Shown here: in pieces, positions 56,373 to 56,979 of the stretch
How positions within the stretch are numbered: position 1 is the first letter of the stretch
Layout of the letters: the number at the start of each line of letters is the position of its first letter
Source: an uncultured Clostridium sp.
Lineage (GTDB): Bacteria; Bacillota; Clostridia; TANB77; CAG-508
Direction of reading: 5' to 3'
Length of the DNA stretch: 64,000 nucleotides
Assembly (NCBI GenBank): GCA_948467875.1
Contig: CAOKFZ010000001.1
Coordinates: 61,889 to 125,888, forward strand
Made by a program: the position numbers and the translations under genes
Notes under the pieces: model-generated
Databases searched by the model: none
Told to the model about the DNA's origin: nothing
The model's input: only the letters and a program-made list of their open reading frames with translations

Positions 56373-56424
56373 TCCTATCCTCGCTTTATTTTGAACTATT
56401 AAAGGATTTTTAATAGTTCGTTTT
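56373..56424. repeat. About 50-bp direct repeat (copy 1) containing a perfect 11-5-11 palindrome and the RBS of the S2P gene
   Basis: TCCTATCCTCGCTTTATTTTGAACTATTAAAGGATTTTTAATAGTTCGTTTT. Confidence 0.75.
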
Positions 56425-56922
56425 CTAATTTTCTTTTAAAGTATCATAAAAACTTTTCTTATATTCTTCTATTTTCTCATGATCAACTTTACCAATTTTA
56501 AATATAATTTGCTCATTTAAAATTTTATATACTACATCAGTTTTGACTATACTATTTTTATGCAAGTTATTTATATCATCTTTCATTAATAATTTATTAC
56601 TCTTAAATTTTAACTTGTTTAAATTAGAAGATATAAGCATTCCAAAATTTTCAATCGGCACTGCAGTATTGTCTCGATCTATTATAACAAAAAAGTGATT
56701 ATTTCCTACTTTTCCATCCAAATAAACATATTCTTTAACAAAAACAATATCTCCAATTTCATAATTTGTTTGATAAGACACTTCATTTTCTTTTAACACA
56801 TTTTCTGTCTTTCCTTTATGCCATTCATCTTCAACAGGATATTCTCTAAATGCCTCTTCAACATTTTTAATTTTGTCATATTGATATGCAATTTTTAAAA
56901 AGTCACTCAGTTCTTTTTTCAC
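56425..56922 (-). CDS. Hypothetical protein with PemK/MazF-like core resemblance and a 55-aa N-terminal extension (GTG start)
   Basis: IGDIVFVKEYVYLDGKVGNNHFFVIIDRD...MLISSN...SIVKTDVVYKI loosely follows the MazF pattern GDIv.V.f....G.E..k.RPalVis...ItS...S.v.cdQi. An AGGAG RBS lies 7 nt before the GTG. Confidence 0.3.
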   Translation of the reverse strand: MKKELSDFLKIAYQYDKIKNVEEAFREYPVEDEWHKGKTENVLKENEVSYQTNYEIGDIVFVKEYVYLDGKVGNNHFFVIIDRDNTAVPIENFGMLISSNLNKLKFKSNKLLMKDDINNLHKNSIVKTDVVYKILNEQIIFKIGKVDHEKIEEYKKSFYDTLKEN

Positions 56923-56930
56923 AAAATCAC

Positions 56931-56979
56931 TCCTATCTTCTACTTTGAACTATTAAAGGATTTTTAATAGTTCGTTTTT
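56931..56979. repeat. Direct repeat copy 2 (palindrome GAACTATTAAAGGATTTTTAATAGTTC), overlapping the 3' end of the deoxyribonucleotidase gene and carrying the RBS of the MazF-like gene
   Basis: TCCTATCTTCTACTTTGAACTATTAAAGGATTTTTAATAGTTCGTTTTT. Confidence 0.75.

Follow-up and report, generated by a model that had tools for sequence, protein, structure and literature searches.

A single-chain MazF-fold protein, its flanking direct repeats and the 3' end of lysS in uncultured gut Clostridia

Introduction

The MazF, PemK and EndoA toxins (PF02452), represented by Staphylococcus aureus MazF (4mzm) and Bacillus subtilis EndoA (1ne8 and 4mdx), share their fold with residues ~55-165 of a 165-amino-acid (aa) protein encoded in a 64,000-nucleotide (nt) stretch of DNA from an uncultured Clostridium sp. 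(assembly GCA_948467875.1, contig CAOKFZ010000001.1, positions 61,889 to 125,888), hereafter the window. Unlike these toxins, the 165-aa protein carries an N-terminal extension of ~50 residues and has no adjacent antitoxin gene, replaces the catalytic Arg by His and Thr by Ser, scores below the Pfam gathering threshold, and is encoded once per genome, in 44 of 80 species next to lysS. In the window its gene is also bracketed by two direct repeats of ~50 nt, each containing a perfect palindrome. Here, we describe the protein as a new variant, a MazF fold that stands alone, has a conserved extension as well as a His-type site, and is linked to a hot spot of integration; we find that the repeat is best read as a lineage-specific scar and not as a conserved control element of the 165-aa gene family.

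In type III systems such as ToxIN and AbiQ, a Kid/MazF-like RNase is paired with a repeated RNA antitoxin. The window locus resembles these systems in combining an endoribonuclease-fold protein of ~170 aa with direct repeats, but its repeats are two flanking copies and not an upstream tandem array, and they are not conserved with the gene. A different parallel is offered by EzeT, in which an N-terminal cis-acting antitoxin domain is fused to a zeta toxin (PMC4826407). Like EzeT, the 165-aa protein places a toxin-fold domain behind an extra N-terminal domain and lacks a separate antitoxin gene; unlike EzeT, it belongs to a different toxin superfamily, and its cis-inhibition is presumed. No fused MazF of this kind was found in the literature searched. 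With regard to the surroundings of the gene, cis-mobilizable elements (CIMEs) and the tandem accretion of integrative elements at the 3' end of a housekeeping gene have been described for streptococcal elements (PMC5704250).

Results

A MazF-type fold behind a conserved N-terminal domain

The 165-aa open reading frame (ORF; 56425..56922, minus strand) encodes a single-chain protein with a MazF-type endoribonuclease fold. Based on a diverse alignment, AlphaFold2 (AF2) predicted short helices within residues 7-41, a beta core at 58-145 and a C-terminal helix at 148-164 (predicted local distance difference test, pLDDT, 82; predicted template modelling score, pTM, 0.79), and the best 50 Foldseek matches in the PDB were all MazF, EndoA or MoxT structures (probability 1.0, E down to 5e-7, template modelling (TM) score normalised to target 0.64-0.83). 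A family profile built from the diverse alignment also retrieved a nearly pure list of MazF, EndoA and PemK entries from the PDB, with S. aureus MazF matching at E = 0.004 over the whole domain. Both analyses require diverse cluster representatives: from close homologues only, AF2 reached a pLDDT of 40 and the profile found no PDB relative. The Pfam PemK_toxin model matched the window protein at E = 0.0018 (18.9 bits, below the 23.1-bit gathering cut-off; positions 3-103 of 109), and 38 of 41 family members at E<=0.01 (best 1.9e-9). The protein had no match in NCBIfam or PADLOC, and a ToxN or type III system was rejected for lack of a ToxN Pfam match, of tandem repeats and of a PADLOC match.

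Alignment by hidden Markov model (HMM) placed the invariant His76 (GNNHFFVIID) on the catalytic Arg of S. aureus MazF (GGVRPVVIIQ), and the invariant Ser98 (MLISS) on its Thr (AAITG). We take them as putative catalytic residues of a probable variant active site, which may be functional or inactive.

Ahead of the MazF beta-core and C-terminal helix (residues ~56-165) lies an acidic helical extension (residues ~1-55, 56758-56922, minus strand), conserved as LSDFLK.AY...VK...EAF.EYPVE.EWHKGK.EN with ~20 invariant or near-invariant positions within residues 1-50 among close family members (alignment A1). The extension alone gave no match in Pfam or the PDB and none to a DNA-binding domain, and relatives of 111-130 aa lack it, beginning directly at the first beta strand. 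It is most likely a built-in (cis) inhibitor or regulator of the nuclease, as suggested by its acidic composition, the absence of a partner and the existence of natural variants that lose the core. Among the latter, P0191, P0254 and P0195 have internal beta-core deletions and keep the N-terminal ~45 residues, which in P0191 and P0254 are joined to the C-terminal helix. At L145, a locus close to that of the window (identity of 85% in the neighbouring M50, or site-2 protease family, gene), the first 45 codons are left, followed directly by a Shine-Dalgarno (SD) sequence and the M50 gene; this remnant appears as a 45-aa ORF at 1-190. Such variants are compatible with a toxin core that is readily lost, although truncations trivially leave N-terminal ORFs, which may explain the pattern in part.

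The family is large, with 953 close homologues (mostly 75-82% identical over their full length), 271 cluster representatives in a 50%-identity library and a relative of the gene in 126 GTDB species representatives; viral contigs yielded none. For comparison we kept 80 loci, each from a different assembly and nearly all labelled as uncultured Clostridia from animal or human guts (three carry other bin labels), and in all 80 the gene occupied a single locus per species. The gene is under purifying selection, given a ratio of nonsynonymous to synonymous divergence (dN/dS) of 0.10-0.12, yet dispensable. It is frameshifted in L098 and L099.

The gene lies beside lysS in 44 of the 80 species representatives, downstream of it in 39 and upstream in 5, and in about 24 species an M50 gene follows within 3 kb, usually with tsaD and often with a metallophosphoesterase gene. 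Between lysS and the gene lie 16-76 nt in 16 species plus L146, and between the gene and M50 19-38 nt in several species, too short a space for an antitoxin gene or a promoter of its own; neither an adjacent antitoxin gene nor a small ORF partner was found at the window locus or at the compared short-gap loci. An earlier note on this DNA, which had recognised a loose MazF/PemK pattern, an N-terminal extension and no visible antitoxin partner, and had called for structure prediction, is borne out on all three counts. Its description of the ORF as an orphan is apt for the missing partner gene, but not for a member of so large and conserved a family.

Two side observations concern these neighbours. 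In three independent contigs of the nearest outgroup lineage, L146 (2849-3584), L147 and L148, tsaD is called as two short fragments (109/152 aa, 87 aa), which suggests a disrupted gene or else systematic trouble with assembly or gene calling; tsaD is a normally essential gene for threonylcarbamoyladenosine (t6A), and its disruption would be surprising. In L039, a 290-aa ORF (1938-2810) is inserted between lysS and the 165-aa gene, with an R-N-K-L-S-H motif reminiscent of HEPN RNases, no Pfam match and weak PADLOC matches only (PDC-M34B, E = 0.002).

Two copies of a hairpin and Shine-Dalgarno sequence around the gene

Copy 1 of the direct repeat (56373..56424) spans the junction from the 165-aa stop codon to the start of the M50 gene, and copy 2 (56931..56979) that from the 3' end of an NT5C-like 5'-deoxyribonucleotidase/HAD gene to the 165-aa start. 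A repeat search on the plus strand delimited a 38-nt direct repeat (56387-56424 and 56941-56978, 97% identity), and by eye and in alignment A4 the homology extends past a 4-nt indel up to a common GATAGGAG, giving ~49 of 53 matching nt. On the coding (minus) strand, copy 2, from NT5C to the 165-aa gene, reads AAAACGAACTATTAAAAATCCTTTAATAGTTCAAAGTA----GAAGATAGGAG, and copy 1, from the 165-aa gene to M50, reads AAAACGAACTATTAAAAATCCTTTAATAGTTCAAAATAAAGCGAGGATAGGAG; their first 35 nt are identical (35/35), and after the indel 10 of the 11 final nt match. Both contain the 27-nt palindrome GAACTATTAAA-GGATT-TTTAATAGTTC (11-5-11) without a mismatch (56393-56419 and 56947-56973), and the 42-nt hairpin core folds as RNA with -10.3 kcal/mol (z = -6.2). 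GATAGGAG forms the SD sequence in each copy, in copy 2 lying 7 nt ahead of the GTG start codon of the 165-aa gene, from which the palindrome is 22 nt distant, and in copy 1, which begins directly after the 165-aa stop codon, serving the M50 gene. Copy 2 also takes in the final 8 codons and the stop codon of the NT5C-like ORF. Six metagenome contigs of this species from other samples all show an identical arrangement. The repeats, the palindrome, the SD sequence supplied to each next gene and the overlap with the deoxyribonucleotidase end had all been described in the earlier note, and all of them stand.

Within the window no third match to the palindrome was found, even when 3 mismatches or a free loop of 3-9 nt were allowed, and none is expected by chance. 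The exact 27-mer, examined as a possible regulon motif, had no matches in GTDB representative genomes or in viral contigs, a result that is silent on the window's own genome. When the loop was left free, 36 matches were found in metagenomes, of which ~30 came from Ga0099364 and none had the window loop. These matches bear on the idea that a palindromic unit of 35 nt is a small mobile element, similar to repetitive extragenic palindromic (REP) sequences, which inserted into two adjacent intergenic regions. If the SD parts are alike merely as SD sequences, the strictly identical part is indeed a hairpin unit of ~35 nt, and the same 11-nt arms with other loops are dispersed on ~30 contigs of that one unrelated metagenome. 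We nevertheless consider such an origin very improbable: the 64 kb hold two copies, both around one gene, exact copies are absent from the GTDB genomes and viral contigs, the metagenome copies come from an organism of higher GC content, and the two window copies share the 8-mer GATAGGAG, which lies outside the hairpin.

The dispersed palindromes of Ga0099364 (GC 36-46%) and a few other metagenomes (L100-L135) often take the form ATC-GAACTATTAAAT-N3-ATTTAATAGTTC-GAT and often lie near a second repeat, ATTGCGGGCTTGACCCGCAAT. They look like a REP-like family of an unrelated organism.

Two further identities for the hairpin were rejected. It is not an intrinsic terminator, as the stem has 2 G-C pairs and is followed on the sense strand by AAAGUAG or AAAAUAAAG, and a terminator scan was negative. 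Nor is it an integron attC site, defined here by R'' RYYYAAC and R' GTTRRRY boxes with an integron integrase nearby: GTTCAAA and GTTCGTT misfit GTTRRRY, and the gene is syntenic across species and not part of an array. Rfam gave no match at the gathering score in 8 loci, and two chance-level microRNA matches in window positions 55000-60500.

The 3' end of lysS as an attachment site

In the clade the 3' end of lysS is the attachment (att) site of tyrosine-integrase islands. Two loci of the same species, one empty (L136) and one holding an island (L137), have the same sequence from CAATGAAACCTTTGGCTTAA on (the last six lysS codons), with identity resuming at CAATGAAACCTTTGG within these codons, and just before this point L137 carries a 400-aa tyrosine integrase (Phage_integrase) and a non-coding arm. 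Similarly, L016, where lysS directly precedes the gene without an island, and L017, with an integrase, a non-coding arm termed D and a lysS end, encode an identical 165-aa protein. An integrase is also found at the lysS site of L040 (Phage_integrase, 1.1e-25).

Arm D (~120 nt) adjoins the integrase and recurs immediately behind the 165-aa stop codon, the latter in L016, L020, L021, L039, L040, L042, L058 and L097. After the 165-aa gene it ends in a decayed lysS terminus (in L016 ACAAGGAAACCATTAAACTAA, read as T-R-K-P-L-N-stop), and in L039 a terminator-like hairpin follows the lysS remnant. In this sub-clade, the 165-aa gene lies inside an att-bounded mini-element without an integrase, and new islands stack beside it, resulting in the D-165-D arrangement of L017, L039, L040 and L053. 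These loci resemble the accretion of CIMEs and integrative and mobilizable elements, in that at L016, L017, L039, L040 and L053 the gene lies between att-type repeats without an integrase of its own and with islands stacking. The window differs from CIMEs, its repeat being ~50 nt long, unrelated in sequence and inclusive of an SD sequence, without integrase or D arm; to regard the window locus as an accreted element of this type would be analogy only.

We also scanned the 250 nt upstream of the gene against the 250 nt downstream, and did the same for lysS, M50 and tsaD. Repeats scoring above every null comparison occurred at 4 of 74 165-aa loci, namely L040 (120 nt), L007/L032 (60 nt), the window and L039, and at 0/39 lysS, 0/25 M50 and 0/16 tsaD loci. 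The repeat of L007/L032 (3859-3918 and 4545-4604) is 87% identical between its copies, brackets the 165-aa gene, duplicates the final codons of a convergent 95-aa gene and is unrelated in sequence to that of the window. There the 165-aa gene lies far from lysS and near mfd, with its own promoter-like sequence.

A more far-reaching proposal, which we hold to be quite improbable, sees in the 165-aa gene an addiction or defence module of one gene, an att-flanked mini-cassette moved in trans by the lysS integrases, with the window palindrome as a core-type recombination site. If so, it would be self-contained, joining a cis-antitoxin to a His-type MazF nuclease, and such a mobile one-gene module would outlive island decay and thereby mark and stabilise the lysS hot spot.

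History of the window locus

The nearest outgroup, L146 (LysS 87% and M50 74% identical), has the order lysS-22 nt-165-31 nt-M50, with neither NT5C nor hairpin. The window lysS matches that of L146 up to ATGAAGCCTTTGAA (58256-58243); beyond this point its reading frame runs on into an HD/HDIG domain of ~210 aa, and NT5C comes next. As ATGAAGCCTTTGAA is the same core as the att site of the lysS islands, lineage-specific DNA starts exactly at the hot spot. NT5C between lysS and the 165-aa gene has no counterpart in L146 or in any other lysS-165 locus, and both NT5C and the HD extension of lysS appear to be lineage-specific additions. An arrival of the hairpin together with NT5C found no support: NT5C homologues in three other contexts (L136, L138 and L142) are not followed by it.

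The upstream hairpin and SD sequence are present in the window, L012, L141 and L145, of which the last shows the right half only, at a contig end (alignment A4). In L012 the hairpin has 4 differences in 35 nt and still folds (-9.2 kcal/mol), and in L141 it has 7 in 35 and no longer folds (-3.1 kcal/mol, z = -0.2). The 34-nt downstream junction of L012 keeps the loop, right arm and SD sequence (AATTCTTTAATACTTCAAATAAGGAGG) and has lost the left arm, so at least part of the duplication predates the split between the window and L012. The two window copies, identical at 35 of 35 positions, are closer to each other than are orthologues between lineages, which suggests that in the window species they underwent gene conversion or were recently duplicated anew.

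The sequence between lysS and M50 also stands out in its divergence. Synonymous divergence (dS) from L012 is 0.18-0.20 for NT5C and the 165-aa gene, against 0.46-0.73 for five flanking genes. A base-composition artefact was ruled out, as the difference persists when conditioned on third-position base class (A/T third positions differing from L012: 15/280 versus 108/838). The GC content at third codon positions (GC3) is low, at 0.21 for NT5C and 0.16 for the 165-aa gene (window mean 0.275, standard deviation 0.05). Between ~57800 and ~56400, sliding identity to L012 is ~95%; on either side it is 88-91%, and the right-hand change falls at repeat copy 1. From this halved synonymous divergence and the identity switch at copy 1, the NT5C-165 segment has a more recent shared history than its flanks, with the repeat at the segment edge.

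These comparisons also bear on the proposal of the earlier note that the 165-aa gene is a small mobile cassette, inserted between NT5C and M50 with duplication of a ~50-nt target comprising hairpin and SD sequence. Such an insertion would account for a repeat whose two copies enclose exactly the 165-aa gene, one containing the 3' end of the preceding gene and the other beginning immediately behind the 165-aa stop codon. The unrelated 60-nt repeat of L007/L032, which includes a neighbour's 3' end in another context, fits the same idea, as do NT5C directly abutting M50 in L136 and a GC3 of the 165-aa gene far below that of its neighbours in the window, L012 and L146. Furthermore, distances for the 165-aa gene correlate weakly with those of housekeeping genes (Spearman 0.36, versus 0.63-0.69 among housekeeping genes). 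However, lysS-165-M50 without a detectable flanking repeat is a common arrangement, found in the nearest outgroup too; no empty NT5C-hairpin-M50 site was found among the compared loci; outside the window clade the hairpin is unlinked to the 165-aa gene; the element encodes no recombinase; and NT5C and the 165-aa gene share their reduced divergence as one block, to which repeat copy 2 is internal. We therefore judge this origin clearly unlikely, and a recent cassette is unsupported in the form first proposed. The comparison with related strains that the note had called for did show the 165-aa gene reduced to a remnant in L145 and missing between NT5C and M50 in L136, but not the empty site. The lower identity to L146 of the 165-aa protein (79%) than of LysS (87%) was dropped as evidence of horizontal transfer, as ~70% invariant sites and fast saturation of the others explain the values equally well.

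The window lysS (57600-59723, minus strand) encodes 707 aa, a normal class II lysyl-tRNA synthetase (LysRS) plus the HD/HDIG domain of ~210 aa, whereas LysS of other species has 499 aa and ends in ...FPTMKPLN*. The fused domain scores 27.1 bits against the 27.6-bit cut-off of TIGR00277 and E = 0.003 for Pfam HD, and the fusion point (58243) coincides with the island att core. LysRS makes diadenosine tetraphosphate (Ap4A), a substrate of HD-domain hydrolases such as YqeK, and the fused protein could therefore be functional.

Origin of the repeat and possible roles of the hairpin

Our preferred explanation, to which we give an even chance, is that the window repeat represents a duplicated recombination junction at the lysS hot spot, made identical by gene conversion. 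DNA inserted at the lysS 3' end stacks in tandem and leaves the same type of junction on both sides of the 165-aa gene, as seen in other lineages with intact integrases. In the window clade, an HD-domain ORF fused to lysS and an NT5C gene were added exactly at the hot spot, after which the junction of hairpin and SD sequence would have come to lie both upstream and downstream of the 165-aa gene. The two copies may then have been re-homogenised in the window species by gene conversion or a recent re-duplication, and the scar would incidentally give each downstream gene an SD sequence and the mRNA an AU-rich stem-loop.

Several observations weigh against this scenario. The window locus has neither an integrase nor a D-like arm, and the likeness of the right half of the hairpin to the lysS 3' end is a 7-9-mer in AT-rich sequence, statistically not established and a lead only. 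The repeat brackets the 165-aa gene, whereas the apparent newcomer is NT5C, and the scenario thus needs one further step or more, either conversion or re-duplication. In L136, a more distant species, NT5C directly abuts M50 without the 165-aa gene, and the opposite order, with the 165-aa gene inserted between NT5C and M50, may therefore apply instead. L012 has a hairpin at its upstream junction and a different small hairpin downstream (-6.4 kcal/mol), which could mean selection for a stem-loop. Finally, nuclease activity, cis-inhibition and gene conversion are all assumptions of the scenario.

The alternatives of a shared operator or RNA element, which the earlier note had set beside a footprint of DNA rearrangement, fit less well, and it is the footprint that lies nearer the evidence. 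The hairpin is absent beside the gene in all other species examined, including L146; it is degraded in L141, and its downstream left arm is missing in L012; no sense-strand promoter-like site was found at either window hairpin; and the N-terminal domain is very well conserved without a correspondingly conserved palindrome. The last two points also count against the notion of a DNA operator for the N-terminal domain, as when a fused antitoxin-toxin regulates itself. Palindromic operators are the classical binding sites of type II antitoxins, and a perfect palindrome so close upstream of the start codon would suit that role. Yet other species have no conserved palindrome ahead of the gene, the extension has no match to a DNA-binding domain, the gene in many species starts too soon after lysS (16-76 nt) for a promoter to fit, and the second palindrome copy precedes an unrelated gene, all of which leaves an operator extremely unlikely.

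A selected intercistronic RNA module, in which the hairpin and SD sequence act in processing, stabilisation or translation coupling and are perhaps cut by the MazF-like nuclease, would draw on the co-orientation of all genes behind one good promoter match, on the stable fold of a stem that is perfect in both copies and identical across the six contigs, and on L012, where the upstream hairpin is kept, a loop change lengthens the stem and one G-C pair becomes G-U. There are, however, no compensatory changes, the stem is lost in L141, comparable junction hairpins were found neither in 13 other loci (12 other species and L012) nor in L146, Rfam has no match, and the AU-rich stem, having no sense-strand U-tract, is no terminator. 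Although this makes an RNA function rather unlikely, the stem-loop reading keeps some weight on account of the hairpins at both junctions of L012.

Other features of the window

The locus is encoded on the minus strand. The best sigma-70-like promoter match (59757..59785, TTTACA-17-TATAAT) lies upstream of lysS and is likely the start of a lysS-NT5C-165-M50-tsaD transcript. It is followed by lysS proper (class II lysyl-tRNA synthetase, 58243..59723), the in-frame HD/HDIG C-terminal extension (57600..58242), which starts where the match to a normal lysS end stops, and the NT5C-like gene (56953..57582; Pfam NT5C, 7.5e-8), whose ORF runs into repeat copy 2. Downstream of the 165-aa gene, the M50 gene (55630..56364), translated from the copy-1 SD sequence, is a conserved neighbour.

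Elsewhere in the window, three ORFs of low GC content (68, 130 and 366 aa; 52087-53791, minus strand) lie between a metallophosphoesterase and an RNA methyltransferase gene, the two larger having a GC3 of 0.18-0.22. The sister loci L012/L013 lack them, with the two genes ~100 nt apart there, and the ORFs are probably another lineage-specific insertion. A 633-aa ORF (62053-63954, minus strand) is an outlier in composition, having the lowest GC3 of the window (0.12) but a normal GC content at codon positions 1 and 2 (0.42).

Discussion

The window repeat is best read as an ordinary lineage-specific by-product of recombination, and the protein family is the more interesting part of the locus. The case cautions against taking such flanking repeats as regulatory motifs. 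In addition, the locus shows that in this clade the 3' end of lysS serves as an attachment site at which elements accrete in tandem, which explains the recurrence of unrelated direct repeats around one small gene.

To our knowledge, which includes the literature searched, no described class comprises solo MazF-fold proteins that have an N-terminal domain built in and carry His at the position of the catalytic Arg. This solo His-type MazF family is conserved in more than 100 species of uncultured gut Clostridia. Should its extension prove to be a cis-antitoxin, the family would extend the single-chain toxin-antitoxin idea, as in EzeT and CapRel, to the MazF superfamily and offer a compact system in which to study it.

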